IMG/VR virus record: IMGVR_UViG_3300028844_004047
Span: 16,350-80,349 of that record
Length of the DNA stretch: 64,000 bases
Source of the DNA: a virus
Reading direction: 5' to 3' (one strand)
Positions 48,594 to 62,150 of the stretch are shown piece by piece. The notes under the pieces are model-generated. The model was not told the origin of the DNA, did not search any database, and saw only the letters and a program-made list of their open reading frames with translations. Position 1 is the stretch's first letter. The number at the start of each line of letters is the position of its first letter. A program made the translations under genes and the position numbers.

Positions 48594-51254
48594 ATGTACG
48601 TTGACGCACTCTTTGACAGAGACAAAGACTTAATTCAAATAGTCGAAAGAAACAAACACGGTAAACGAGAGTATCGTGATTATCCCGCAAAATATGTATT
48701 CTATTATGATGATCCGAAAGGTAAACATAAAAGTATTCACGGCAATCCTGTAAGTAGGATACAATGTCGTTCGATAAAAGATTTCCGTAGAGAAATTAAA
48801 CTAGTTGGACAAAAGCGACTTTATGAAAGCGACTTTAATCCAGTATTCCGTATATTAGAAGAAAACTATCTAGGACAAGATGCACCTAAACTGCACACTT
48901 GCTTTTTTGATATTGAGGTTGACTTCGATAAGGAAAGAGGTTTCTCTCCACCTGATGATCCATTTAATCCTGTAACTGCAATTAGTTTATATTTGCAATG
49001 GACAGATCAACTTATTACGTTGGCTGTTCCACCTAAAGGAATGGACAAAGAAGAAAGCCAAAAGATATGTGACAAGTATGAAAACTGTTTTTTCTTTGAA
49101 GAAGAATCGCAGTTACTTGACACGTTCTTAACACTGATTGATGATGCAGATATTTTATCTGGTTGGAACAGTGAGGGTTATGATATTCCCTATCTTGTAA
49201 ATAGAGTTAAACGTGTATTAAGTAAAGATGATACAAGACGTTTTTGTTTATGGGGTGCATATCCTAAGCCAAGAACATTTGAACGTTTTGGTGCAGAGAC
49301 ACTAACGTTTGACACTATTGGTAGAGTACATATGGATTATATGCAACTTTATCGTAAGTATACATATCATGAAATGCATAGTTACTCTTTAGATGCTATT
49401 GGTGAATATGAATTAGATGAACGTAAAGTTCAATACACAGGCACACTGGATCAATTATACAACAATGACTTTGAAAAGTTTATTGACTATTCAAGACAGG
49501 ATACTGCACTACTAGATAAACTAGATAAGAAACTAAAGTTTATGGAGTTAAGTAGTGAACTTGCTCATGCAAACACAGTGTTACTACAAACAACAATGGG
49601 TGCAGTAGCAGTTACAGAACAAGCAATTATTAATGAAGCACATGAACGTGGACTAGTTGTGCCAAGTCGTAAAAGTAGAGATGAACTTGGTAACACACAG
49701 GCGGCAGGTGCTTATGTGGCATATCCTAAAAAAGGACTACATGACTGGATTGGTAGTATTGATATCAACTCTTTGTATCCTTCGGCTATTAGAGCCCTTA
49801 ATATGGGAAATGAAACTATTGTAGGGCAATTACGTCCAGACTATACAAACACACACGTTAAAGATAGTATGGCGGCTAAAAAGTCGTTTGCAGATTCTTG
49901 GGAAGGTATGTTTGGTAGTATTGAATATGAACTAGTTATGGCACAAGATATTGATAAAGAGATTGTACTTGAATGGGAAAACGGATCTCATGATGTATTA
50001 ACTGGTAAAGAAATATACAAGATGATCTTCTTAGAAGGTAAACCATGGATGTTAAGTGCAAACGGTACAATATTTAATTCAGAAGTTGAAGGTGTTGTTC
50101 CTGGACTATTAGCAAGATGGTATAGAGAAAGACAAGACATACAAAAAGTAAAAGCAGGTGCAAGTACTCCAGAAGAGAAAGCATTCTGGGATAAACGACA
50201 GTTGGTTAAAAAGATTAACTTGAACAGTTTGTATGGTGCTATTCTTAATCCTGGTTGTAGATTCTTTGATAAACGTATTGGACAAAGTACAACACTATGT
50301 GGCAGAGCGATTGCAAAACACATGGATGCATATGTTAATGAATGTTTAACAGGTGAATATGATCACAGAGGTAAAACTATTATATATGGTGACACTGACT
50401 CTGCTTATTTTAGTGCTTGGCCCGTGCTTAAAGATAAAGTTGAAAAGGGTGAACTAGAATGGAATAAAGATGTTGCTATTAAATTGTATGATCAAATTGC
50501 AGATCAAGTCAATGTCAGTTTTCCAGAGTTTATGAAAAAGGCTTTTAATTGTCCAAGAGATAATGGACAGATTATTGTTGGTGGCAGAGAAATGGTTGCC
50601 ACTAAAGGATTGTTTATTACAAAGAAAAGATATGCAGTTCTAATCTATGACATGGAAGGTTACAGAACAGATACAGGAGATAGTCCGGGTAAAATTAAAG
50701 CAATGGGACTTGACCTTAAACGTTCGGATACACCTAAGATTGTACAAGACTTTTTAAGTGATATTTTACAAGGTGTACTTACTGGACTTGGTAGAGATGA
50801 AACACTTGAAAAAGTGAAATTATTTAAAGAAGAATTTATGTTACGCCCGGGTTGGGAAAAAGGAAGTCCTAGACGTGCAAATAATATGACAAAATTTCAA
50901 GCCTTGGAAGAAAGACTTGGAAGAGCAAATATGCCAGGACACGTTAGAGCAAGTATGAACTGGAATAGATTGCGTAAAATGAACAGTGATAGATATAGTG
51001 CTGAAATTAAAGATGGTGCTAAAGTTATTGTTTGTAAACTAAAAGCAAACCCGTTAGGGTATACAAGTGTCGCTTATCCAACAGATGAACCACACTTACC
51101 TCAATGGTTTAAAGACTTACCGTTTGATGATGGTGCTATGGAAAGTACTGTTATTGATAGTAAAATTAACAACTTGTTAGACGTATTGGAATGGAATCTA
51201 ACGTTAGATTCTAATACTACAACAAAATTTAACGATTTATTTAGTTTTGAGTAG
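48594..51254 (+). CDS. polB: Family B DNA polymerase (T4 gp43-like)
   Basis: Exo FFDIEV, GWNSEGYDIPY, YSRQD; pol SIDINSLYPS, KKINLNSLYG, YGDTDS, KKRYA. Confidence 0.97.
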   Translation: MYVDALFDRDKDLIQIVERNKHGKREYRDYPAKYVFYYDDPKGKHKSIHGNPVSRIQCRSIKDFRREIKLVGQKRLYESDFNPVFRILEENYLGQDAPKLHTCFFDIEVDFDKERGFSPPDDPFNPVTAISLYLQWTDQLITLAVPPKGMDKEESQKICDKYENCFFFEEESQLLDTFLTLIDDADILSGWNSEGYDIPYLVNRVKRVLSKDDTRRFCLWGAYPKPRTFERFGAETLTFDTIGRVHMDYMQLYRKYTYHEMHSYSLDAIGEYELDERKVQYTGTLDQLYNNDFEKFIDYSRQDTALLDKLDKKLKFMELSSELAHANTVLLQTTMGAVAVTEQAIINEAHERGLVVPSRKSRDELGNTQAAGAYVAYPKKGLHDWIGSIDINSLYPSAIRALNMGNETIVGQLRPDYTNTHVKDSMAAKKSFADSWEGMFGSIEYELVMAQDIDKEIVLEWENGSHDVLTGKEIYKMIFLEGKPWMLSANGTIFNSEVEGVVPGLLARWYRERQDIQKVKAGASTPEEKAFWDKRQLVKKINLNSLYGAILNPGCRFFDKRIGQSTTLCGRAIAKHMDAYVNECLTGEYDHRGKTIIYGDTDSAYFSAWPVLKDKVEKGELEWNKDVAIKLYDQIADQVNVSFPEFMKKAFNCPRDNGQIIVGGREMVATKGLFITKKRYAVLIYDMEGYRTDTGDSPGKIKAMGLDLKRSDTPKIVQDFLSDILQGVLTGLGRDETLEKVKLFKEEFMLRPGWEKGSPRRANNMTKFQALEERLGRANMPGHVRASMNWNRLRKMNSDRYSAEIKDGAKVIVCKLKANPLGYTSVAYPTDEPHLPQWFKDLPFDDGAMESTVIDSKINNLLDVLEWNLTLDSNTTTKFNDLFSFE

Positions 51255-51318: not shown

Positions 51319-52050
51319 ATGAAAGACTATCTAAATGACATTGTTCAGCATACACACAGTTTAGGCTTTATCGATTTGATTAAAGTAAACGGTACTGACG
51401 CTGAAACAAATATCGAAGGACTTGCAGATGACAGAAGTGTCATTGTACAAGCAAAATTCAAACAACCTTATGCAGAGTTCATGGGTACGTTTGGTATGCC
51501 TAATCTAAACAAACTAGCAATCTTACTTGGTATTCAAGAATATAAAGAAGATGCTAAAATTACGATTAGTAAACAAGAACGTAATGGAGTAGAAGTTCCA
51601 GTTGGACTATACTTTGAAAACGTTAGAGGTGACTTTAAAAACGACTATCGCTTTATGACAAGTGAAGTTATTAACGATAAACTTAAAACTGTTAAGTTTA
51701 AAGGCGTTAATTGGAACGTTGAGATCAAGCCAAGTGTTGCGGCGGTACAACGTTTAAAAATGCAGGCACAAGTACACAGTGAAGAAACAACTTTTATTGC
51801 TAAAACAGAAGATGGCAACTTGAAGTTTTACTTTGGTGATCATAGTACTCATGCTGGTAACTTTGTATTCCAACCAGATATTACTGGTACATTGAAACAT
51901 GGTTGGCAGTGGCCCATTAATCAAGTAATTAGTATTCTAAGTCTTCCAGGTGAAGTTACTATGCGATTCTCAGATGAGGGTGCTAGTATGATTTCTGTAG
52001 ACAGTGGAATGGTTGCTTACGATTATATCCTTCCAGCACAATCTAAATAA
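51319..52050 (+). CDS. DNA polymerase sliding clamp (gp45/PCNA-like)
   Basis: 243 aa, directly after polB; alpha/beta repeat ending ..SDEGASMISVD...YDYILPA. Confidence 0.75.
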   Translation: MKDYLNDIVQHTHSLGFIDLIKVNGTDAETNIEGLADDRSVIVQAKFKQPYAEFMGTFGMPNLNKLAILLGIQEYKEDAKITISKQERNGVEVPVGLYFENVRGDFKNDYRFMTSEVINDKLKTVKFKGVNWNVEIKPSVAAVQRLKMQAQVHSEETTFIAKTEDGNLKFYFGDHSTHAGNFVFQPDITGTLKHGWQWPINQVISILSLPGEVTMRFSDEGASMISVDSGMVAYDYILPAQSK

Positions 52051-52062
52051 GAGGATCAGTTA

Positions 52063-53529
52063 ATGAAGACTGACTTAACTAAAGAACAGAATGACTATGC
52101 AGTCTTTTTGCCGGCATTAAGTACATTCTATGCACTATTTGTAGGTAGGCAACGTAGGCACGAATATATTGATTATAATCGTGTTCCTAGTTTCTTGCAA
52201 CATGGCGTAGAAAGTATTAACTGGTTGGCACCGGAAGGTATATGGAAATATAAATGGAGTCTACACTCGGCGGGTCATGCCAGTTTAGATTTACAAAAGG
52301 ATATGTATCGTGAAGATATGTATCGTGTTCGTGATAAAAACACTAGTTGGTTACTAGGGGACTCAGGTGGTTTCCAAATTGGTAAAGGTAAGTGGGAAGG
52401 CGACTGGCGTAAAGACAGTGGTTGTCCACAAGCACAGAAAAAACGAGACGGTGTTTTAAAATGGATGGACAAGTTCATGGACTACGGAATGATTTTAGAT
52501 ATTCCGGCTTGGGTAAGTCGTTCCCCAGAAGGTGCGGCGGCAAGTAAGATTAGTTCATATCAAGAAGCAGTAGAAGGCACACAACAAAATAACGAATATT
52601 TCATTAAAAACAGAAACGGTAATTGTAAGTTCTTAAATGTATTACAAGGTGAGAACTTCCAACAAGCCGATGACTGGTATAATCAAATGAAACATTTCAG
52701 TGATCCTAAATTATATCCAGATGCACACTTTAATGGTTGGGCAATGGGTGGTCAAAATATGTGTGACTTACACCTAGCACTAAAACGTGTAGTAGAACTT
52801 CGCTTTGATGGTTTACTTGAGAAAGGCAAACAAGATGTTATGCACTTCTTAGGTACAAGTAAACTTGAATGGGCATTGGTACTAACGGCTATACAACGTG
52901 GTATTAGAAAAAATCATAATGAGAATTTTACTGTAACTTTTGATTGTGCAAGTCCTTTCTTATGTACTGCTAATGGTCAGATTTATACTGGACATAGAAC
53001 TGTACAAGATGAAAAGTGGAGTTACTTGATGTCTAGTGCACCAGATGATAAAGCATATAGTACTGATACAAGACCTTATGATGATTTAGCAACAGATTTC
53101 TTTACTAAACAAGGAATGAATTGGATGCCTACTCCTATTACAAAAGGACTAAAAGTAAATGACGTTTGTATTTACAGTCCAACAGATGTTAATAGAATGG
53201 GTGTGTCTACTAAAACTAGTTGGGATAGTTTTGCATATGCACTTATGATGAATCATAATGTTTATACACATATTAATAGTGTACAAGAAGCAAATAGACA
53301 ATATGACTCAGGCAATTATCCTAATATGCTTATTAATGATACATTTGATAAACAAGAAGTTAAAGATGTTATTGCTAGAGTATTTGAAATTGATAATAAA
53401 GATCAAGCATTAGCATTAATTGACGAGCATACAAAATTATGGATGAAAGTAGTTGGTACACGTGGAGCAGTTGGTAAAAAAACTATTAACAGTTCTGCAC
53501 AATTTAACAATTTATTCAGTGAGAATTAA
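52063..53529 (+). CDS. TGT-fold base-exchange enzyme (DpdA/queuine tRNA-ribosyltransferase-like)
   Basis: GDSGGFQIG, MILDIP, NVLQG, GWAMGG, MHFLGTS, TFDCASP, HN: the ordered TGT catalytic motifs; no CxCxxC Zn site seen. Confidence 0.85.
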   Translation: MKTDLTKEQNDYAVFLPALSTFYALFVGRQRRHEYIDYNRVPSFLQHGVESINWLAPEGIWKYKWSLHSAGHASLDLQKDMYREDMYRVRDKNTSWLLGDSGGFQIGKGKWEGDWRKDSGCPQAQKKRDGVLKWMDKFMDYGMILDIPAWVSRSPEGAAASKISSYQEAVEGTQQNNEYFIKNRNGNCKFLNVLQGENFQQADDWYNQMKHFSDPKLYPDAHFNGWAMGGQNMCDLHLALKRVVELRFDGLLEKGKQDVMHFLGTSKLEWALVLTAIQRGIRKNHNENFTVTFDCASPFLCTANGQIYTGHRTVQDEKWSYLMSSAPDDKAYSTDTRPYDDLATDFFTKQGMNWMPTPITKGLKVNDVCIYSPTDVNRMGVSTKTSWDSFAYALMMNHNVYTHINSVQEANRQYDSGNYPNMLINDTFDKQEVKDVIARVFEIDNKDQALALIDEHTKLWMKVVGTRGAVGKKTINSSAQFNNLFSEN

Positions 53530-54405
53530 ATGAGAAGTCTTGTAGTAGGAATGGGTATTGGTCAACTTTACAAAAAGGTACTTACAGAAATGGGTATTGA
53601 AGTTGTAACAGTTGATCCTAAGAGACCAGCACACTATAAAACTATTCATGAAGTTCCAATTGATATGTATGATACTATACATATCTGTACACCAAATGAA
53701 ACCCACGAAGACATAGCAAGGTTCCTTGCTCCGTGGTGTCATTTGCTTTTTATAGAAAAGCCTGGACTTGCTACTTCCAAAGCATGGGCAGATTTGCATT
53801 ACGACTTTCCAGAGTGTAGAATATCTATGGTTAAAAATAATCAATATAGACACAACATCGATGAACTTACTAACATGGCAAGAACAAGCAGAAATGTAGA
53901 TATCAATTGGTGTAACAAAAACAGAGTACCTAACCCAGGCACATGGTTCACAACTAAAGAATTAGCATACGGTGGTGTAAGTAGAGATCTACTTCCTCAT
54001 TTGTTAAGTTTGTATCAAGTGTTCAATTCCGATTACGACGAAACACCTCCATCAGATAAGATAGCAAAGACTAATTGGAAATTAAAAGAACTACTTGATA
54101 CAGACTACGGCACAGTTGATCCTAATGGAATGTATGATGTTGACGACGAAGCAGGTATGACATACAAAGCAAAGTTTTGTAATTACAACCTACTCGCTAA
54201 TTGGAAAACAGATTTATATGATGATGTTGGTTTAAACTTTGAGATATTAGGTAACGTAGAACGTGTAGAGTTAGGCTTATGTCCTGAAGATGCTTATAAA
54301 AGAATGATTGACACAGGGCTGAAAAACCTGCATAATGATACATATTGGGAAGATCAATTTAAAAAAGATATGTGGATACACGAACAAATGGAAGAACTAT
54401 GTTAG
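53530..54405 (+). CDS. Gfo/Idh/MocA-family NAD(P) oxidoreductase
   Basis: VVGMGIG, ICTPNETH, FIEKPG, GGVSRDLLPH. Confidence 0.85.
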   Translation: MRSLVVGMGIGQLYKKVLTEMGIEVVTVDPKRPAHYKTIHEVPIDMYDTIHICTPNETHEDIARFLAPWCHLLFIEKPGLATSKAWADLHYDFPECRISMVKNNQYRHNIDELTNMARTSRNVDINWCNKNRVPNPGTWFTTKELAYGGVSRDLLPHLLSLYQVFNSDYDETPPSDKIAKTNWKLKELLDTDYGTVDPNGMYDVDDEAGMTYKAKFCNYNLLANWKTDLYDDVGLNFEILGNVERVELGLCPEDAYKRMIDTGLKNLHNDTYWEDQFKKDMWIHEQMEELC

Positions 54406-55379
54406 TAAAACTATTACAAACAACAGGCAATGGAAAATTCGAAGAGATAGAATGGGAAAAGCCTAATATAGGTTTTGAAGAAATTGAAGTTAAGGCTTTG
54501 ATGACAGGCGTTTGTCGTAGTGATATTGATATGATGAATGGCAACTTTGGTCCATTACCTTTGCATATGCAAGGACATGAAGGACTAGGACAAGTTACAA
54601 AGATTGGTAAAGGTATTACTGATATTAAAGTTGGCGACTTTGTTGCAACAAGAGGTGAACCTGCATATGCAGATTATTACAACTGTAGGAAAGATGAATA
54701 TGTACAAGTACCTGACGCTGATCCTAAATACATTATAGAACCTGTGGCTTGTGGTGTTAACATTGTTACAAGTAATATGGAGAAATTAAATTGGAGTAGT
54801 AGCATTGCAAAAATCCAAGGTAAAAGACAACGTATATTAATTATTGGCAGTGGGTTTTTAGCAACAGTAGTATACACAAAATTAAAATTAATGCGTTTAG
54901 CAGATGATGTAGATGTATTAGGTTCGCACAATAGAAAGTTTTGGGAAGATAGACTTATAGATAAACCACGTGGACAATATGATATTGTAATCGATTTAAA
55001 AGATGATAGCACACTTGTATTTGATGGTGATATTATTAACGAAAATGCTTTGGTTATTTTGGCGGCAGAGAAAAAAGGAATTACTACAACCTTTGGAAAC
55101 TTATTATGGAAAAATGCAAGTATGCAATTTCCTAGTCCTAGAAACCCAAACTTCCATAGTGCTATGTTAGATGCAGTTTCAATGATAAACACAGGAACAT
55201 TAAACATAGATAACTTTTGGACAAAAGGTTACAGTAGAGATACTGAATGGCAACAAGCATTTGAAGATGGCAACAATAGACCTGAAGGATATAGCAGAGG
55301 GTATATTGTTTGGGAAAAGCATATGTTTAAAATATATGAAGATAAACGTGCAAAGAAAATTATAGAGGGATCTGCATGA
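54399..55379 (+). CDS. Zn-dependent medium-chain (sugar/alcohol) dehydrogenase (track start 54372)
   Basis: GVCRSD, GHEGLGQV..IG....IKVGD.V, IEPVAC, IIGSGFL. Confidence 0.88.
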   Translation: MLVKLLQTTGNGKFEEIEWEKPNIGFEEIEVKALMTGVCRSDIDMMNGNFGPLPLHMQGHEGLGQVTKIGKGITDIKVGDFVATRGEPAYADYYNCRKDEYVQVPDADPKYIIEPVACGVNIVTSNMEKLNWSSSIAKIQGKRQRILIIGSGFLATVVYTKLKLMRLADDVDVLGSHNRKFWEDRLIDKPRGQYDIVIDLKDDSTLVFDGDIINENALVILAAEKKGITTTFGNLLWKNASMQFPSPRNPNFHSAMLDAVSMINTGTLNIDNFWTKGYSRDTEWQQAFEDGNNRPEGYSRGYIVWEKHMFKIYEDKRAKKIIEGSA

Positions 55380-55930
55380 AACAAATGATGAGAACATATT
55401 CCACACTAGATGGTAAAACTATTAAAACTGATAAAGCAAAGTTCTTTATGAATAAAGAAGTTGAAAAAACTCCTATGTATGGTAAACAAACTTTGTTTGT
55501 ATGTGGTATACAAGATTTACAAAAGACTTTGGATCATGCAAAAAACAACAACTTATATCATATCTATTTAGGAACTGGTACAACATTTACTCCTAAAGAA
55601 TTAAGTGATTGGGATAAGTGGGACAACTATATTAAAGGATTATTAGATGCTCATATGTGGGTAACGTTAGACTTTGATATGATGGAATATGGTGCTGATG
55701 TTTTAGATTCGGGCTGGACTGAAAGCAGAAGATTTATTCCAATGATGAGTTTAAAACTTGGTTATTGGAAACAATGGAATATGAACAGCCACAATGCAAC
55801 AGTAAAATTTGACGATGTAGACTTTAACAAGACAAATCCAGGTGTATGGTGTATGCCATTAGATGATGCTATACAATCTCAATTCTTTTCGGATTGGGAC
55901 AAGTACACAGGTGATACATTCATCGAATAA
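55376..55930 (+). CDS. Conserved hypothetical protein within the deazaguanine locus
   Basis: EVEKTP.YG.QTLFV, HIYLG, WVTLDFD, KFDD.DF..TNPGVW. Confidence 0.7.
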   Translation: MKQMMRTYSTLDGKTIKTDKAKFFMNKEVEKTPMYGKQTLFVCGIQDLQKTLDHAKNNNLYHIYLGTGTTFTPKELSDWDKWDNYIKGLLDAHMWVTLDFDMMEYGADVLDSGWTESRRFIPMMSLKLGYWKQWNMNSHNATVKFDDVDFNKTNPGVWCMPLDDAIQSQFFSDWDKYTGDTFIE

Positions 55931-55948
55931 ACCTTAGGAGGAAATACA

Positions 55949-56116
55949 ATGACAACCGACGAATTAAGAAAACAACATAAAATTCTTAAAAAACAAGTTG
56001 ATGAGGCAGAGAAACTTCGAAATGGAGACCGAGGGTGGACAAGTAAAGAAGATTTAATTGCTTTAAAGAAAGAAAAACTAAAAATAAAAGAAGCAATTAG
56101 TAAAAGTAAATCTTGA
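55949..56116 (+). CDS. DUF465/YdcH-like small coiled-coil protein
   Basis: AGGAGG RBS; LRKQHKIL...LKKEKLKIKEAI. Confidence 0.75.
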   Translation: MTTDELRKQHKILKKQVDEAEKLRNGDRGWTSKEDLIALKKEKLKIKEAISKSKS

Positions 56117-56173
56117 CTTTAATAAGGTTTTTATGTATACTATTAACAATAACAACTGTAAAGGTCTATATGA

Positions 56174-56635
56174 ATGGGACAATACTATAATAATATGTTA
56201 AGCGATATGAGAGCGGCGGCTATAAAAGACGCAACAGAAAAGCAATTAAACAATTCAAGCAAAATGATTTGGGTTACATTTAGAAAAGAAGGTATTCATA
56301 AATACCCGGCGGCTTTAGATGATCCTAAACTAGCAACGGGCGATGAATATGATGTAAGTTTCTTAGGTTATCCTCATAGACACATATTCCATTTTAAAGT
56401 ATGGATTGAAATATTCCATGATGATAGAGATATTGAATTTATACAATTCAAACGTTGGTTGGAAAAGTTATACAGTGAGAAGACACTGGAACTTGATTAT
56501 AAATCGTGTGAGATGATGTCAGATGATTTATTCAAAAAGATTAGTGAACGCTACCCCGAACGTTCAGTAAGAATAGAAGTAAGTGAAGATGGGGAAAACG
56601 GCTCAGACATTAGTTATGATTACAAAAGGATATAA
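56174..56635 (+). CDS. queD: QueD-like/6-pyruvoyl-tetrahydropterin synthase (T-fold)
   Basis: EGIHKYP...GYPHRHIFHFKV...DRDIEFIQFK...SCEM...VSEDGENG (HxH, xE, E pattern of QueD/PTPS). Confidence 0.75.
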   Translation: MGQYYNNMLSDMRAAAIKDATEKQLNNSSKMIWVTFRKEGIHKYPAALDDPKLATGDEYDVSFLGYPHRHIFHFKVWIEIFHDDRDIEFIQFKRWLEKLYSEKTLELDYKSCEMMSDDLFKKISERYPERSVRIEVSEDGENGSDISYDYKRI

Positions 56636-56640
56636 CGAAA

Positions 56641-56847
56641 ATGAAAGCTCAAGTGGAGCAAATTTTTGATCAACTCGATCAGTACAAGCAGTTTTGCGTC
56701 GAGAATGGATACCCATTCAACGAAGCAGATTTGGGACGAAACAATAGCCCATACGGTCATATGCTTAAAAGCATTGCAAACAAGCGAAGACCATATAATC
56801 AATGGATTAGAGATGGGAAAGCAATGAGAAGAGGATTTAAAAAGTAG
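56641..56847 (+). CDS. Hypothetical protein
   Basis: IFDQLD.Y..FC...GY.FNEADL. Confidence 0.65.
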   Translation: MKAQVEQIFDQLDQYKQFCVENGYPFNEADLGRNNSPYGHMLKSIANKRRPYNQWIRDGKAMRRGFKK

Positions 56848-57363
56848 ATGTATAGAGTGACAGCCTATTTTAAAAATCACAAAGTCACACAAAAATTTTA
56901 TAATTTGTATGATGCAATAGATTTTAGAGATAGTGCAGATGCTAACTATCCCATACAAGTAAAATTTGAGAAAGTAAAAGACATGAGAGAATGGATCTAT
57001 AATTGTTGGAATGTAATAATGGATCATAATAAGAATCCGTTAAGTGCAATTCCCGACTTACAAGTAAGACACATGGTTATGCAGATACTTGCATTTATGT
57101 GGTCAACTATATTTGCCATTATGATTTTAGATAGTATCTATGCATTTATGTACAGTGCTATTGGACACGTTATTTTTGTAGCAGGTGTAGTAGTTACCGT
57201 AGCAACATTTAAACAAGCAGAACGTAGTCCACACAGTTTTAATTGGATGAACGGTTACCATTCACATGGTAGAGGTCGTAACTATGTGATATGGAGAGAT
57301 AAGCATGGCAATCCACACAAACAACCACTACCAGATAACGACCCTGGTGGAGAACACGAGTAA
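56848..57363 (+). CDS. Membrane protein
   Basis: NPLSAIPDLQVRHMVMQILAFMWS, two TM helices, PGGEHE tail. Confidence 0.7.
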   Translation: MYRVTAYFKNHKVTQKFYNLYDAIDFRDSADANYPIQVKFEKVKDMREWIYNCWNVIMDHNKNPLSAIPDLQVRHMVMQILAFMWSTIFAIMILDSIYAFMYSAIGHVIFVAGVVVTVATFKQAERSPHSFNWMNGYHSHGRGRNYVIWRDKHGNPHKQPLPDNDPGGEHE

Positions 57364-57365
57364 AA

Positions 57366-58460
57366 ATGAAAACAATATACATAGTAGACTTGGAGCCTGT
57401 CGAAACAAGATATACGGCTCAATGGAAAAAACACTTACCTGAACAAATGTCTAGGTACTTAGGTACTGAAGAATATAATGTAAAAGTTATTAGTGGCGGA
57501 GATGTTCCACAAACTACTACTCCAGGTGCATTTTTAAACTTTGCTGGTACAAACAGTTACAAGAGTCAACAAATGTTAGAGATTGCTAATCTTGTAGCAA
57601 GTGGTGAAGTTAAAGATGGTGATTACTTTCTATATACAGATGCATGGAATCCTACTGTTATACAATTAAAGTATATGGCAGAACTATTAAACATCAATAT
57701 TAAGATTGGTGGTATGTGGCACGCCGGTAGTTATGATCCAGCAGATTTCTTAGGTAGAATCATTGGTGCTAAACCTTGGGTACGTTATGCAGAAGCAAGT
57801 ATGTTCGAATGTTATGATCATAATTACTTTGCTACACGTTTCCATGTAGATTTATTTGCACAAAGTTTCTTAAATGATACAAAAGATATTGATCAAAATT
57901 TAGAATCAGGTAAGATGCATATTGTAGGTTGGCCCATGGAGTATCTTAAAGATACATTGAAGCCATTCGAAGGTGCAAAGAAAGAAAACATTATATTGTT
58001 TCCGCATAGAGTAGCACCTGAGAAGAACCCAGAGATCTTTGCTAAATTAAAAGAACTGTTACCAGACTATGAGTTTATTGTATGTCAAGACAAGCAGTTA
58101 AGCAAAGACGAATACCATGAACTACTAGGTAAAGCAAAGATTGTGTTTAGTGCTAACTTGCAAGAAACATTAGGTATCAGTGCTTACGAAGGTTGTTTGG
58201 TAGATACATTACCATTAGTACCTAATAGATTAAGTTACTTTGAAATGTATCCAGATGAATTTAAATATGCAAGTGCTTTAACAGTAACACTAAAAGGATT
58301 TGAAAAGAGTCCTACAGAGGTAGTAGACAAAGTTAAAGATATGGTTGACAACTATGACAAGTATGTTGATACTAACAATATGCTAAAAGATAGATTAAAA
58401 GATTTCTTTGATGGTACAAAACTATACGAAACTATTAAGGAAAGCGTCGATGGAGTTTAA
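57366..58460 (+). CDS. Glycosyltransferase (GT-B, GT4-like)
   Basis: WHAGSYD, FPHRVAPEKNP, SANLQETLGISAYEG (ExxxxxxxE), PNRLSY.E. Confidence 0.85.
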   Translation: MKTIYIVDLEPVETRYTAQWKKHLPEQMSRYLGTEEYNVKVISGGDVPQTTTPGAFLNFAGTNSYKSQQMLEIANLVASGEVKDGDYFLYTDAWNPTVIQLKYMAELLNINIKIGGMWHAGSYDPADFLGRIIGAKPWVRYAEASMFECYDHNYFATRFHVDLFAQSFLNDTKDIDQNLESGKMHIVGWPMEYLKDTLKPFEGAKKENIILFPHRVAPEKNPEIFAKLKELLPDYEFIVCQDKQLSKDEYHELLGKAKIVFSANLQETLGISAYEGCLVDTLPLVPNRLSYFEMYPDEFKYASALTVTLKGFEKSPTEVVDKVKDMVDNYDKYVDTNNMLKDRLKDFFDGTKLYETIKESVDGV

Positions 58461-58791
58461 AGATATTCCATGGAAAGATGTTTTACTTGATGCAAAAGGT
58501 TTTGTAGTATTTAAAGATGGTTACCCAGTTACAGAAGGACATATTCTTTTTGTACCAAAAGTAGCAGATTGGCAACACATGGTTAAGTGTATGGAGTCTG
58601 CTTATAAATGGGGATACGATTGGGTAGACAGAGGTTACTGTGATAGTTTTAACATTGGACAAAATGTTGGAAAAGAAGCAGGGCAAACTGTCATGTATCC
58701 GCATATACATTTGATTCCACGTCGCAAAGGTGATATGGATGATCCAAGGGGTGGTGTTAGACACGTTATCCCAGATAAAGCAAAATATTAA
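58450..58791 (+). CDS. HIT-family nucleotide hydrolase (track start 58408)
   Basis: DGYPVTEGHILFVP, NIGQNVGKEAGQTV.YPHIHLIPR. Confidence 0.92.
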   Translation: MEFKDIPWKDVLLDAKGFVVFKDGYPVTEGHILFVPKVADWQHMVKCMESAYKWGYDWVDRGYCDSFNIGQNVGKEAGQTVMYPHIHLIPRRKGDMDDPRGGVRHVIPDKAKY

Positions 58792-58802
58792 GAAAGGAAC
58801 TT

Positions 58803-59006
58803 ATGTTGAAAGAAGTAATGATTAATGCGGCAAAGAAACACGCAGAAGCAGAAATTGATCTTCACAAGGCTAATATTGAAGTCTATATGCAACAGGTTGT
58901 AGGGATTGGTGAACACAGTGATATCATCGAAACCATCCAGAAAGAATTGGATAAAATGGCTACTGCACATGATAGACTTGAAATGTTAAACAAATATTTT
59001 GATTGA
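58803..59006 (+). CDS. Small hypothetical phage protein
   Basis: AAGGA RBS; H.ANIEVY...VGIGEHSDI.E.I.KEL. Confidence 0.75.
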   Translation: MLKEVMINAAKKHAEAEIDLHKANIEVYMQQVVGIGEHSDIIETIQKELDKMATAHDRLEMLNKYFD

Positions 59007-59075
59007 CATTTGCCTAAATAAGACTGTAAAATATAAAAATAAACACGTCTCGCCGTGTATAACTAGGAGAAAAAA

Positions 59076-59762
59076 ATGAGTATAAGTGAAGAAATTAAAA
59101 ATCGTATCCAGGCTGATGGCTCTCGCTATTGGGCTGGAGACAATATTAGCAAGTATTTAGAAGAAGGTGATAAGCAAAAACTTATCGATGAACTTACACC
59201 TAAGTTTGAAGCAGTGCTAGACAGTTTGGTAATTGATAGAAACAATGATCCAAATAGTATGGACACTGGCAAACGTCTTGCTAAAATGTACATCAATGAA
59301 CTAATGGCAGGGCGTTACGAAGAAATGCCTAATGCAACTGCATTTCCCAATCATATTGAAAATGGTTATAAAGGTATGCTGGTAGTACGAAGTGAACTTA
59401 AAAGTGTTTGTTCGCATCATCACCAACCAGTAAGTGGAGTGGCATATATTGGAATCATTGCGGCAGAACATTTAATTGGTTTGTCTAAGTATACTAGGAT
59501 TGCACAATGGTGTGCAAGACGTGGTACATTACAAGAAGAACTTAATAATGTTATTGCTGATGAGATTCAAAAAGCAACTGGTAGTCCTAATGTAGGTGTA
59601 TACATTCAAGCAACACATGGTTGTTGTGAGAATAGAGGAATTATGGCACATAGTTCTTTAACACAGACAACTGTATTACGTGGTGCTTTTAATGAAGACA
59701 TGGGCACTAAAAAAGAGTTTATGGATAATATTAAACTACAACAGGAATTCGCTCCTAGATAG
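59076..59762 (+). CDS. folE: GTP cyclohydrolase I
   Basis: DTGKRLAKMY, SVCSHHHQP, IGLSKYTR, RRGTLQE, ATHGCCENRG. Confidence 0.95.
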   Translation: MSISEEIKNRIQADGSRYWAGDNISKYLEEGDKQKLIDELTPKFEAVLDSLVIDRNNDPNSMDTGKRLAKMYINELMAGRYEEMPNATAFPNHIENGYKGMLVVRSELKSVCSHHHQPVSGVAYIGIIAAEHLIGLSKYTRIAQWCARRGTLQEELNNVIADEIQKATGSPNVGVYIQATHGCCENRGIMAHSSLTQTTVLRGAFNEDMGTKKEFMDNIKLQQEFAPR

Positions 59763-59773
59763 GATTTTGAATA

Positions 59774-60085
59774 ATGTATAGACCACTACCAGACGGAATA
59801 ACTATTAAATCATCTGATGTGCAAGGCTTAGGATTATTTGCAACAAAAGATTTTGAAGCAGATATGGTACTAGGTATTGTCCATGTAATGAATAAGAACT
59901 TTCCACATGGTAGTATTCGAACTGCCTTAGGTGCTTTTTATAATCACTCAGAAGATCCAAATTGTAAAAATGTAAAAGGCTTTTGGCACCAAATACCAGT
60001 ATGTTACTTAATAACTACAAAGCCAATCAAAGCAGGTGATGAGTTAACTGCCAAATACACACTATATAAGGACTTTAATGATTAA
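59774..60085 (+). CDS. SET-domain protein (Lys methyltransferase-like)
   Basis: GLGLFATKD, FYNHSEDPNC, IKAGDELTAKY. Confidence 0.88.
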   Translation: MYRPLPDGITIKSSDVQGLGLFATKDFEADMVLGIVHVMNKNFPHGSIRTALGAFYNHSEDPNCKNVKGFWHQIPVCYLITTKPIKAGDELTAKYTLYKDFND

Positions 60086-60239
60086 AACAACAAAAACATC
60101 AAAAGATGATACAATGCACATTTATTCAGACGGATCTGTATTAATGGAAAAAGATCACCGTTGGTTACAAAATCATATGAAAAAGCAAAGACAAGTTAGA
60201 AAAACACTATCTAAGAAAAGAAAACCAATAAAGAAATAA
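60078..60239 (+). CDS. Small basic hypothetical protein (53 aa)
   Basis: AAGGA RBS; overlaps the SET gene stop. Confidence 0.45.
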   Translation: MIKTTKTSKDDTMHIYSDGSVLMEKDHRWLQNHMKKQRQVRKTLSKKRKPIKK

Positions 60240-60323
60240 TGGAATTATTAGGATTATTATTTGTAGGAGTTCCTGTTAGTGTGATTGCTATGTATTTTAT
60301 ATTCAAATTTATTAACATAACAG

Positions 60324-60647
60324 ATGAAGAGAATGACGATAGAACCAATAAAAGAAAAACTAGACGATAAAATTAAACAACTTAATTCTACAAGAGTCTT
60401 TAAGAAAGTAACACCTAAAGGAGATCTATCTTGGTATATTAAGTGGGCGGCTAGTTTCTTTATTCTTGTTGCCGTTGCGGCTAGAAGTGCCGGAACAGTA
60501 CCAGCAATAGATTTATGGTTTAGTCTAGTTGGCACAATAGGATGGTTTTGGGTTGGTATGCTTTGGCATGATAGAGCCTTAACTATGTTAAATGCTACAC
60601 TTACTACAATATTATTAATCGGTTTATTTACATATTACGGAGGTTAA
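60324..60647 (+). CDS. Small membrane protein (DUF6552-like)
   Basis: WYIKWAAS...GW.WVG.LWHDRAL..LN; related to 48303..48548. Confidence 0.7.
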   Translation: MKRMTIEPIKEKLDDKIKQLNSTRVFKKVTPKGDLSWYIKWAASFFILVAVAARSAGTVPAIDLWFSLVGTIGWFWVGMLWHDRALTMLNATLTTILLIGLFTYYGG

Positions 60648-60656
60648 ATATCATCT

Positions 60657-60881
60657 ATGCCAATACCAGAAAGAGTTTATGTTCCTAGTGAACAACCAGA
60701 ATCCCCAAAAGGGATAGTACCAGCCAGCAAAGATCCAGGCAAGGGCCATTTTTATGTCAGTTTGGTCAAAAGTGTTTTAAGAATAGGCGCAGGAGGATCA
60801 CTCCTCTATGGAAACCTGTTGTTGGCTGGTGCACTTTTTATTGTTGCCGAATTACTTGGCATCTTAGAAGAAATAGTATAG
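60657..60881 (+). CDS. Small membrane protein
   Basis: GGAGG RBS; HFYVSLVKS.LRI...AELLGILEEIV. Confidence 0.7.
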   Translation: MPIPERVYVPSEQPESPKGIVPASKDPGKGHFYVSLVKSVLRIGAGGSLLYGNLLLAGALFIVAELLGILEEIV

Positions 60882-60888
60882 AGGATAT

Positions 60889-61377
60889 ATGTTGAAAGAT
60901 TATCAAGGAAAGGTAGATAACTTCTTTAGGTGGATTAAAGGAACCGAACTAGTTGAACTACATGATATTGACGTAACAGAAGATCCTGTAAGACCAAATT
61001 TAGATTTAAATTTTAGAACTACTTATGGTCGAAAGATATATGGATTGAAATACGAAGATACTATTGAAGGTATCGTTTGTGTGGCGTTTACTAATGAAGT
61101 ACCAGTTACTGAAAAGGAATTGGAACTAATGAGTAAGACTGCCGAATTAGAAAACAATCCTACAATAGCAATAGCCTACACAGTATGGTCTCGCAAGAGA
61201 GGTGCTGGTAGAGAAATTATATTCAAATTAAAAGAATATATAGAAAAAGATTTGTTACACATTAAACGTGTAGTAACATTGAGTCCATTGACACCAATGG
61301 CAACACATTTTCATATTAAAAATGGTGCTAAATTAATGACCATTAATTCAACAACACAAAATTTTGAATACAAATAA
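60889..61377 (+). CDS. GNAT-fold protein
   Basis: EDPVRP...AIAYTVWS.KRGAGR.II...VTLSP.T.MA..FH.KNGA. Confidence 0.6.
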   Translation: MLKDYQGKVDNFFRWIKGTELVELHDIDVTEDPVRPNLDLNFRTTYGRKIYGLKYEDTIEGIVCVAFTNEVPVTEKELELMSKTAELENNPTIAIAYTVWSRKRGAGREIIFKLKEYIEKDLLHIKRVVTLSPLTPMATHFHIKNGAKLMTINSTTQNFEYK

Positions 61378-61418
61378 TATGATTAACTATAACATAACAT
61401 ACACCACGGAGGAAACTT

Positions 61419-62027
61419 ATGTTTAATTTTAAGAACGTAGATAAAACTATGCTTATGAAACTTGTAGCACTGCACGTTATTGTGATTACAGTATCAAATG
61501 CATTAGTGGCAATACCAGTAGAAATATTTGGTGTTAAATTAACCTGGGCGGCATTTACTTTCCCATTAGTTGTTATTGCAACAGACTTAACAGTTAGATT
61601 GTTAGGTAAAGAGATTGCAAGGTCAACTATCGCGGCGGCATATCCATTAGCAATTATTGGATCTATCGCAGTTGTATTGGCAGAAGGTGCACCTGGATCA
61701 GTTGCATTAAGAATTGGTTTTGCAAGTGCTACAGCATATGCAATTGGTACAATGCTTGACGTTTATGTATTCCAATACATTAGAGAAGCATTTAAAAACA
61801 ATTGGTGGTTAGCACCAGCAGTATCAACTGTTGCGGCAAACATTATTGATACTTACACATTCTTTGCAGTTGCGTTTAATAACAGTGCTGATGAATATAT
61901 GGCGGCAAACTGGATTGAAATTGCAGGTTCTCAAACTGTACTTAAAATCGCAGTAGGTTTGTTAGTATTCTTACCAGCATATGGTATTTTACTAAACCAA
62001 CTACAAAAGAAGTACAAGTTAAAATAA
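61419..62027 (+). CDS. yhhQ: Queuosine-precursor (preQ0/preQ1) transporter, YhhQ/QPTR family
   Basis: SNALV..P, TWAAFTFP....TDLTVR.LG...AR, RIGFASATAY, LDVYVF, WWLAP..ST...N.IDT..FF..AF, FLPAYG; GGAGG RBS. Confidence 0.92.
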   Translation: MFNFKNVDKTMLMKLVALHVIVITVSNALVAIPVEIFGVKLTWAAFTFPLVVIATDLTVRLLGKEIARSTIAAAYPLAIIGSIAVVLAEGAPGSVALRIGFASATAYAIGTMLDVYVFQYIREAFKNNWWLAPAVSTVAANIIDTYTFFAVAFNNSADEYMAANWIEIAGSQTVLKIAVGLLVFLPAYGILLNQLQKKYKLK

Positions 62028-62054: not shown

Positions 62055-62083
62055 AAAAGCGAGGCTTCGGTCTCGCTTTTTTT
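62055..62083 (+). terminator. Intrinsic terminator closing the polB-yhhQ region
   Basis: AAAAGCGAGGC-TTCG-GTCTCGCTTTTTTT. Confidence 0.92.
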
Positions 62084-62150
62084 ATGGGCCTAGGTTGACA
62101 ATATGAATAATTCCTGTATAATATAACATTAGAACAACATAAAGGAACAT

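Follow-up and report, generated by a model that had tools for sequence, protein, structure and literature searches.

A predicted DpdL-type 7-deazaguanine DNA-modification module with a linked glycosyltransferase in an uncultured marine giant phage

In T4, whose DNA contains glucosyl-hydroxymethylcytosine, and in other phages with glycosylated pyrimidines, a phage GT-B enzyme decorates a non-canonical base of the DNA, which thereby escapes restriction. To our knowledge, glycosylated DNA bases are all pyrimidines, and none of the eight 7-deazaguanine derivatives known from phage DNA carries a sugar; a literature search likewise turned up no report of a phage DNA with a glycosylated deazaguanine, in line with the initial annotation of the DNA studied here. 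We describe a locus in which a glycosyltransferase (GT) gene lies among genes for 7-deazaguanine synthesis and base exchange, next to the replication genes of an uncultured marine giant phage. The window analyzed, 64,000 nucleotides, is bases 16350-80349 of the 80,349-bp IMG/VR viral contig IMGVR_UViG_3300028844_004047. The contig was estimated by CheckV to be about 22% complete, which would put the genome of this jumbo phage near 350 kb. Its family B DNA polymerase is nearest to those of Sinorhizobium phage Phosso, Agrobacterium phage Atu_ph07 and Vibrio phage 2.275.O (42-49% identity).

The closest known system is that of the Cellulophaga phage phiST, in which DpdL and DpdA3 serve a route to 2'-deoxy-7-deazaguanosine (dDG; PMC10516641). 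Like phiST, the present locus has FolE, a DpdL with the LxxxHRHxF motif, and a divergent transglycosylase of the tRNA-guanine transglycosylase (TGT) fold that is missed by Pfam and adjoins replicative polymerase genes; QueE and QueD are found in relatives of this locus. Unlike in phiST, the transglycosylase is 488 rather than 259 amino acids, about twice as long and weakly similar, and phiST lacks the GT4 glycosyltransferase, the conserved protein u184, the HIT protein, the oxidoreductase pair Gfo/MDR and the transporter YhhQ that accompany it here. In the Pseudomonas jumbo phage PA5oct (Wroclawvirus), homologues were found for the DpdA-like enzyme (34% identity), GT (44%), DpdL (57%), Gfo (29%), MDR (41%) and u184 (37%). 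GT is EST35_0317 there and DpdL EST35_0318. The phage shares the order polymerase-clamp-DpdA-like, and encodes QueE, FolE and QueD; its module adds a purine-phosphoribosyltransferase-like gene and a truncated epimerase-like open reading frame (ORF), and no YhhQ was seen in it. Acidovorax phage ACP17, a 156-kb phage, has a compact operon, QueD-FolE-x-DpdA-GT-DpdL-QueE, with the same DpdA-GT-DpdL core as here (GT 38% identical) and without Gfo/MDR, u184, HIT or YhhQ. When ACP17 dpdA and dpdL were tried in E. coli in 2023, without the GT, no dDG was seen, and no GT is mentioned in that report (PMC10516641).

The genes on which our argument turns are the following; the features around them are listed further below.

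48594..51254, + strand: family B DNA polymerase (PolB); Pfam DNA_pol_B 110 bits; C-terminus ...TKFNDLFSFE
51319..52050, + strand: sliding-clamp-like protein, by position and conservation; the syntenic Phosso gene is annotated as sliding clamp
52063..53529, + strand: DpdA-like base-exchange enzyme of the TGT fold; AlphaFold2 (AF2) fold, catalytic motifs, disordered QFNNLF tail
56174..56635, + strand: DpdL (QueD paralogue, proposed decarboxylase of 7-carboxy-7-deazaguanine, CDG); LxxxHRHxF motif, hhalign match to phiST DpdL
57366..58460, + strand: glycosyltransferase of GT-B/GT4 type; AF2 model (pLDDT 85.4), fold matches, EX7E motif
59076..59762, + strand: FolE (GTP cyclohydrolase I); Pfam 131.8 bits, PHROG 2197

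Neighborhoods were compared among IMG/VR, GenBank phage and GTDB contigs. The locus counts given below refer to 80 related viral loci from IMG/VR, many of them truncated, so that the counts are minima; homologues in phages at large were sought in 50,697 phage records. All of the ORFs named in the initial annotation lie on the + strand, 3' to PolB and the clamp, at or near the positions it had given.

A DpdA-like enzyme beside the replication genes

The protein encoded at 52063..53529 had no sequence match in Pfam, PHROG, NCBIfam or the Protein Data Bank (PDB), even when a 42-member profile was used, and neither it nor any other part of the contig matched PF01702, even at an E value of 10. The published DpdA3 and DpdA4 likewise have no PF01702 match and were recognized via HHpred. 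The AF2 model, built from a diverse alignment (pLDDT 92.5), retrieved tRNA-guanine transglycosylases for all of the top 50 Foldseek matches (E about 6e-7), and VIA matched it to bacterial, archaeal and eukaryotic TGTs with Z scores of 18-19 over about 300 residues. Among 42 diverse homologues D100, S101 and G103 (in DSGGFQ) and D294 (in FDCASP) are invariant; D100 and D294 align with the motifs of E. coli Tgt that hold the general-base and nucleophile Asp residues (TDSGGFQ and MFDCV). Thus the TIM-barrel fold of bacterial Tgt is kept along with DSGGFQ and the Asp nucleophile of FDC. Unlike Tgt, the protein has no PF01702 match, stands in a replisome context and ends in a clamp-peptide-like tail, and it has no conserved CxCxxC...H zinc site as in tRNA TGTs, there being no Cys in any invariant or nearly invariant column of the 42 homologues. 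The initial annotation had credited it with all of the catalytic motifs of the fold; the fold and the catalytic Asp pair were borne out, and the zinc-site Cys residues were not.

The family to which this enzyme belongs is very large: clustering at 90% identity leaves over 7,700 clusters, of which many come from marine metagenomes, and clustering at 50% leaves 945. Profile comparison by hhalign related it to genes of ACP17 (96.3%) and BUDD (95.8%), both of which adjoin GT, DpdL and QueE genes. A homologue in Vibrio phage 2.275.O adjoins QueF, Vut_1, QueC, Gat, FolE and QueD, and the PA5oct homologue has QueE nearby, with FolE and QueD also present in that phage. The assignment of 52063..53529 as a DpdA-type enzyme within a 7-deazaguanine module is therefore supported. 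No match was found in phiST or in Campylobacter phages by tblastn with the protein, and a 447-amino-acid ORF upstream of DpdL in phage BUCT-ZZ01, considered as a further member of the family, had no detectable relation to it.

The DpdA-like gene lies 3' to PolB and the clamp gene in the 80 IMG/VR loci, in PA5oct and in Vibrio phage 2.275.O, and a homologue of the clamp-like protein separates it from PolB in 81 loci. The clamp-like protein itself has no Pfam match. The C-termini of the DpdA-like enzyme (AQFNNLFSEN, disordered; window 53470-53529) and of PolB (TKFNDLFSFE; 51195-51254) are near-identical, and it is at the C-terminus of PolB that we presume a T4-type clamp-binding peptide to lie. 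Among the DpdA-like relatives, about half keep QFxNLF and the rest have an acidic tail of the LDETKLEDLEDEQL type. A PolB-like tail favors DNA over tRNA as the substrate. Virion DNA of PA5oct is resistant to enzymes with G in GA or GG contexts, and a sensor of modified G attacks it (PMC12191111). Synteny with the replisome, the PolB-like tail and the modified G of PA5oct DNA together favor DNA as the target of the DpdA-like enzyme, and we consider it likely that a deazaguanine modification of DNA is present.

DpdL and the precursor pathway

The gene at 56174..56635 had been called QueD-like. Its product is a T-fold protein in which LxxxHRHxF replaces the CxxxHGH motif, so that the catalytic Cys of QueD and 6-pyruvoyltetrahydropterin synthase (PTPS) is missing; L64, H68, R69, H70 and F72 are invariant or nearly so. 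The motif LxxxHRHxF is the DpdL signature according to Cui, Hutinet et al., who propose that DpdL is a CDG decarboxylase (PMC10516641). Comparison with phiST DpdL gave 99.1% by hhalign (E 8e-19) and 30% identity by tblastn; identity to ACP17 DpdL is 57% (tblastn). As a canonical QueD the gene fared poorly: there is no PF01242 match on the contig, hhalign against phage QueD gave 0.1%, and only one of 22 family members touched PTPS, at an E value of 0.18. On its sequence, then, the protein is a member of the DpdL family, with the proposed CDG decarboxylase activity, and not QueD. It is found in 68-71 of the loci. This identification makes the base pathway the known phiST type, in which FolE, QueD and QueE lead to CDG and DpdL to 7-deazaguanine, and so points away from the non-canonical or purely salvage route that had been entertained before.

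FolE is present in 42-47 of the 80 loci. Neither the window nor the 80-kb contig contains QueE, QueF or a canonical QueD (Pfam PTPS and radical-SAM families; tblastn for QueE). In the relatives, a QueE homologue related to those of PA5oct and ACP17 lies 3' to FolE in 30 of 80 loci. The nearest relatives have the order FolE-YhhQ-x-PRT-x-x-x-QueE, where PRT is a purine-phosphoribosyltransferase-like gene, and QueE is about 3 kb past YhhQ. Because the contig stops 2 kb past YhhQ, its QueE probably lies beyond the contig end. A canonical PTPS was found elsewhere in one of four longer relatives searched, and in PA5oct.

The initial annotation noted that QueE, QueC and QueF are not in the window, which holds, and proposed a search of the rest of the genome; on the remainder of the contig queE and queF were not found, while contig positions 11853-12440, upstream of the window, contain a partial QueC-like PP-loop ORF, for which the PF06508 match (E 1.4e-9) covers the C-terminal part only. 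Next come a weak cupin/hydroxylase-like ORF and an S-adenosylmethionine (SAM) methyltransferase (L094:11853-13754); this stretch may be a second base-tailoring unit or may be unrelated. The PRT-like gene occurs in 48 of the 80 loci (for example L008:17221-17775, L001:15946-16380 and L104:2093-2554), in PA5oct and in BUCT-ZZ01. It is not in the window, and neither Pfam nor tblastn with the relatives' proteins found one on the contig. It could recycle guanine freed by base exchange or make a deazapurine nucleotide. A related jumbo phage (L043, an IMG/VR contig of 256,558 bp) has at least 20 radical-SAM ORFs in about 45 kb, at about 140-187 kb, an island unusually large for a phage; a weak QueC-like ORF adjoins one of them.

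The glycosyltransferase and accessory genes

The AF2 model of the protein at 57366..58460 has the two-Rossmann GT-B fold and matched retaining GT-B enzymes over its full length, with Z scores of 20-24.6 and 290-330 aligned residues; sucrose-phosphate synthase, BshA and MshA are among the matches (Foldseek E 2e-9). The EX7E motif (E267...E275) is invariant in 20 homologues, as are R215 and K220, the basic residues expected to contact the phosphates of the nucleotide sugar. By sequence alone there was no match in the PDB, and the Pfam Glycos_transf_1 score of 21.1 bits is under the cut-off of 26.4. The GT-B assignment made in the initial annotation is thus upheld by fold and by motif.

GT is found in 60-68 of the 80 loci, and the conserved order is PolB-clamp-DpdA-like-u184-DpdL-GT-(HIT-u67)-FolE-(PRT)-(QueE). 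Among cultured phages it adjoins DpdL in the PA5oct-like phages, Phosso, ACP17 and BUCT-ZZ01, and the two genes are 1-3 kb apart in BUDD/X1 and BCSR5. GT homologues of 40-48% identity were also found in GTDB, in 17 long loci of Alphaproteobacteria (Rhizobiales and Rhodobacterales; L114-L130). In 16 of these a contiguous trio, Vut_1 (YhhQ family)-GT4-TGT-like, stands amid varying neighbors, and no DpdL or deazaguanine synthesis genes were seen near the trios; Shimia ponticola and Ochrobactrum are among the carriers. GT is therefore linked more closely to the base-exchange enzyme than to any of the biosynthetic genes, and is a core member of the module rather than an extra. That it belongs to the deazaguanine pathway seems to us probable on balance. 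One of the bacterial loci adjoins an ABC-3C CTD6 gene.

The remaining features of the gene run are these:

53530..54405, + strand: Gfo/Idh/MocA oxidoreductase (Gfo); family profile against DgpA (glycoside 3-oxidase) E 5.9e-14
54399..55379, + strand: Zn-dependent medium-chain dehydrogenase/reductase (MDR); ADH_N 43.8 bits (cut-off 23.5)
55376..55930, + strand: conserved protein u184; 71-75 of 80 loci
56641..57363, + strand: two small ORFs of 68 and 171 amino acids, from the ORF list; the longer has a hydrophobic stretch
58450..58791, + strand: HIT-family protein; Pfam HIT 39.6 bits, contains PHIHLIP
58803..59006, + strand: conserved small ORF of 67 amino acids (u67), between HIT and FolE; 36-37 loci
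61419..62027, + strand: YhhQ/Vut_1 transporter of queuosine precursors; PF02592 88.1 bits (cut-off 27.2)
62055..62083, + strand: intrinsic terminator closing the gene run; hairpin 62055-62080, -15.4 kcal/mol, z -3.2, followed by U7

As had been described, Gfo starts at 53530, the base after the stop of the DpdA-like gene, and MDR overlaps it; the true MDR start is the ATG at 54399, a 7-nucleotide overlap with the Gfo stop, and u184 in turn overlaps MDR by 4 nucleotides. The single Gfo sequence falls under its Pfam cut-off (19.3 against 24), and the family profile matches more than 40 Gfo/Idh/MocA structures, with invariant G7 and G11 near the N-terminus. Its best solved relative, DgpA, oxidizes C3 of the sugar of a glycoside. 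The MDR profile matched 185 MDR entries in the PDB, including alcohol and threonine dehydrogenases; C48, H69 and E70 are invariant and the catalytic zinc ligands are kept. Gfo occurs in 13-14 of the 80 loci and MDR in 12-13, always together and at a single site, with at least four gains or losses on a quick tree of the DpdA-like enzyme. The pair is an accessory, patchily distributed cassette. Two dehydrogenases and a GT had been the original basis for proposing a sugar-bearing base, with TGT, Gfo, MDR and GT expected to stay together in relatives. The linkage of GT stood up to this comparison; that of Gfo and MDR held in a minority of the loci, and u184 proved to be conserved as well.

No family or PDB match was found for u184, and 24 members scanned with Pfam did not agree on any family. 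In the protein atlas, the leads, to TIM-barrel glycosidase-like families, all stayed below the threshold (scores of at most 0.87), and the "glycosylase" annotated at the u184 position in Phosso has no detectable relation to it. Full-length homologues of Gfo, MDR and u184 were found in the phage records only in PA5oct-like phages, as a contiguous trio, Gfo-MDR-u184, that in PA5oct (EST35_0362-0364) is 26 kb away from the DpdA-like, GT and DpdL genes. Between DpdL and QueE, PA5oct also has the short ORF EST35_0320 (L001:15416-15934), in which an NAD-dependent epimerase/dehydratase domain is represented by its N-terminal part alone and which is, judged by that domain, another enzyme of sugar-nucleotide type in the same module.

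The other neighbors vary in conservation. The two small ORFs between DpdL and GT are poorly conserved (4-8 and 6 loci), and the 171-amino-acid one has no Pfam match. HIT, whose true start is the ATG at 58450 within the 3' end of the GT gene, is in 35-36 of the loci, and YhhQ in 7-8. HIT, FolE and Vut_1 pass their Pfam cut-offs; YhhQ also passes TIGR00697 (112.7 bits, cut-off 50.95), and its score against NF008406 (192.9 bits, E 5e-57) is under the equivalog cut-off of 252. An ORF with a SET domain (PF00856, 45 bits) at 59774-60085, between FolE and a DUF6552 gene, is shared with one related locus only. The strong terminator reported after YhhQ was not picked up by a simple scan and was found by hairpin folding energy. 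Directly 3' to it, at 62095-62122, is a 12/12 match to the sigma-70 consensus TTGACA-16-TATAAT, a promoter-like site that probably starts the next early transcription unit.

Proposed pathway and alternatives

From these folds, motifs, homologies and gene linkages we infer the following chemical steps. FolE, together with a QueD and a QueE whose genes would lie in other parts of the genome, would produce CDG, which DpdL would convert, probably, to 7-deazaguanine, and YhhQ would add a salvage route by importing ready-made precursors. The DpdA-like enzyme would exchange guanine in phage DNA for the deazapurine, probably while held at the fork by its PolB-like clamp-binding tail. GT, acting in the same pathway, would most likely transfer a hexose to the deazapurine before or after insertion, and in this phage Gfo/MDR and u184 would most likely remodel the sugar via a keto intermediate. 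A replisome-linked DpdL-type 7-deazaguanine DNA-modification module with GT in its pathway is the explanation that we favor, at what we judge to be about an even chance. That the sugar ends up on the DNA base is a more tentative proposal, somewhat likelier to be wrong than right. We hold equally tentatively, or slightly more so, the reading as a whole: that these phages and the cultured carriers PA5oct, ACP17 and Phosso may have glycosylated 7-deazaguanine in their DNA, put in place at the fork by a DpdA-like transglycosylase that rides the clamp and by a dedicated GT4 enzyme; that some lineages may further edit the sugar with the Gfo/MDR/u184 cassette; and that in Alphaproteobacteria the transporter-GT-transglycosylase trio may do likewise from salvaged precursors.

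Several observations weigh against this proposal. 7-Deazaguanine has no obvious oxygen or nitrogen acceptor beyond those of guanine itself; the acceptors of T4-type enzymes are hydroxyl groups of pyrimidines, whereas here the base would be a purine analogue with a putative acceptor atom. The top structural relatives of GT mostly use small-molecule acceptors, and the bacterial trios, being without DpdL, indicate that the acceptor need not be 7-deazaguanine. phiST makes dDG with DpdL and DpdA3 and has no homologue of this GT; the DpdA-like enzyme matches phiST DpdA3 (CGPG_00065) only weakly (hhalign 83.7%, E 8e-6, 82 columns only). To these may be added the lack of QueE and canonical QueD on the contig and the acidic tail that stands in place of QFxNLF in about half of the relatives.

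Some of the same points suit an alternative that we regard as rather unlikely yet substantial, namely that the DNA carries only a known modification, dDG or its CDG counterpart dCDG, and that GT, u184, HIT and Gfo/MDR act elsewhere, on a host envelope glycan, a metabolite or a protein, their one link to the module being expression in the same early or middle phase. Replacement by dDG is full in phiST (PMC10516641), a phage with no match to this GT; small molecules or lipids are common substrates of GT4 enzymes; and 7-deazaguanine is without an obvious acceptor atom. Against this alternative, GT and a TGT-like gene lie side by side in 16 of the 17 bacterial loci, amid differing neighbors, and phages that infect alpha-, beta- and gammaproteobacteria and cyanobacteria have GT next to DpdL or to the DpdA-like gene; common timing would not by itself account for this.

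Two further alternatives seem to us improbable. Instead of a DNA base, the genes could yield a pterin bearing a sugar, on the model of tetrahydrobiopterin glucoside synthesis in cyanobacteria, which uses FolE, a T-fold enzyme, reductases and a GT4 enzyme. By established pterin biochemistry such a pathway needs FolE, a PTPS-fold protein and two dehydrogenases, and tetrahydrobiopterin glucosyltransferases are among the structural matches of GT (Z 20.7), although not the top ones. Against a pterin, the most conserved member of the module is the DpdA-like enzyme, QueE, the committing step to deazapurines, is part of the module in relatives, the catalytic Cys found in QueD/PTPS is missing from the T-fold protein, and most loci have no dehydrogenases. 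About as improbable is a TGT-fold enzyme that modifies phage or host tRNA, with GT then decorating the product as in the glycosylation of eukaryotic queuosine. The fold does match tRNA enzymes, YhhQ is a salvage transporter for queuosine precursors, and the bacterial trios have no replisome context; but the phage gene lies between the clamp and other replication genes and encodes a PolB-like tail, modified G is found in PA5oct DNA itself, the family does not conserve the zinc site seen in tRNA TGTs, and no QueA, QueG or QueH was seen in the locus.

Returning to a sugar-bearing deazaguanine in DNA, a conserved GT locked to a base-swapping enzyme, when no sugar-bearing deazaguanine is known, leads to the prediction of a new class of DNA base. 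If it is true, a purine analogue with a sugar on it would be known from a genome for the first time. The prediction can be tested directly in cultured phages; the same genes are carried by therapy-relevant Pseudomonas phages with modified G. The new base would explain the failure of DpdL and DpdA to yield dDG in E. coli. The size of the TGT-like family, with its many marine metagenome members, widens the reach of the finding, and a base of this kind would matter for restriction evasion, for sensing by type IV enzymes and END nucleases, and for the sequencing and assembly of marine jumbo phage DNA.

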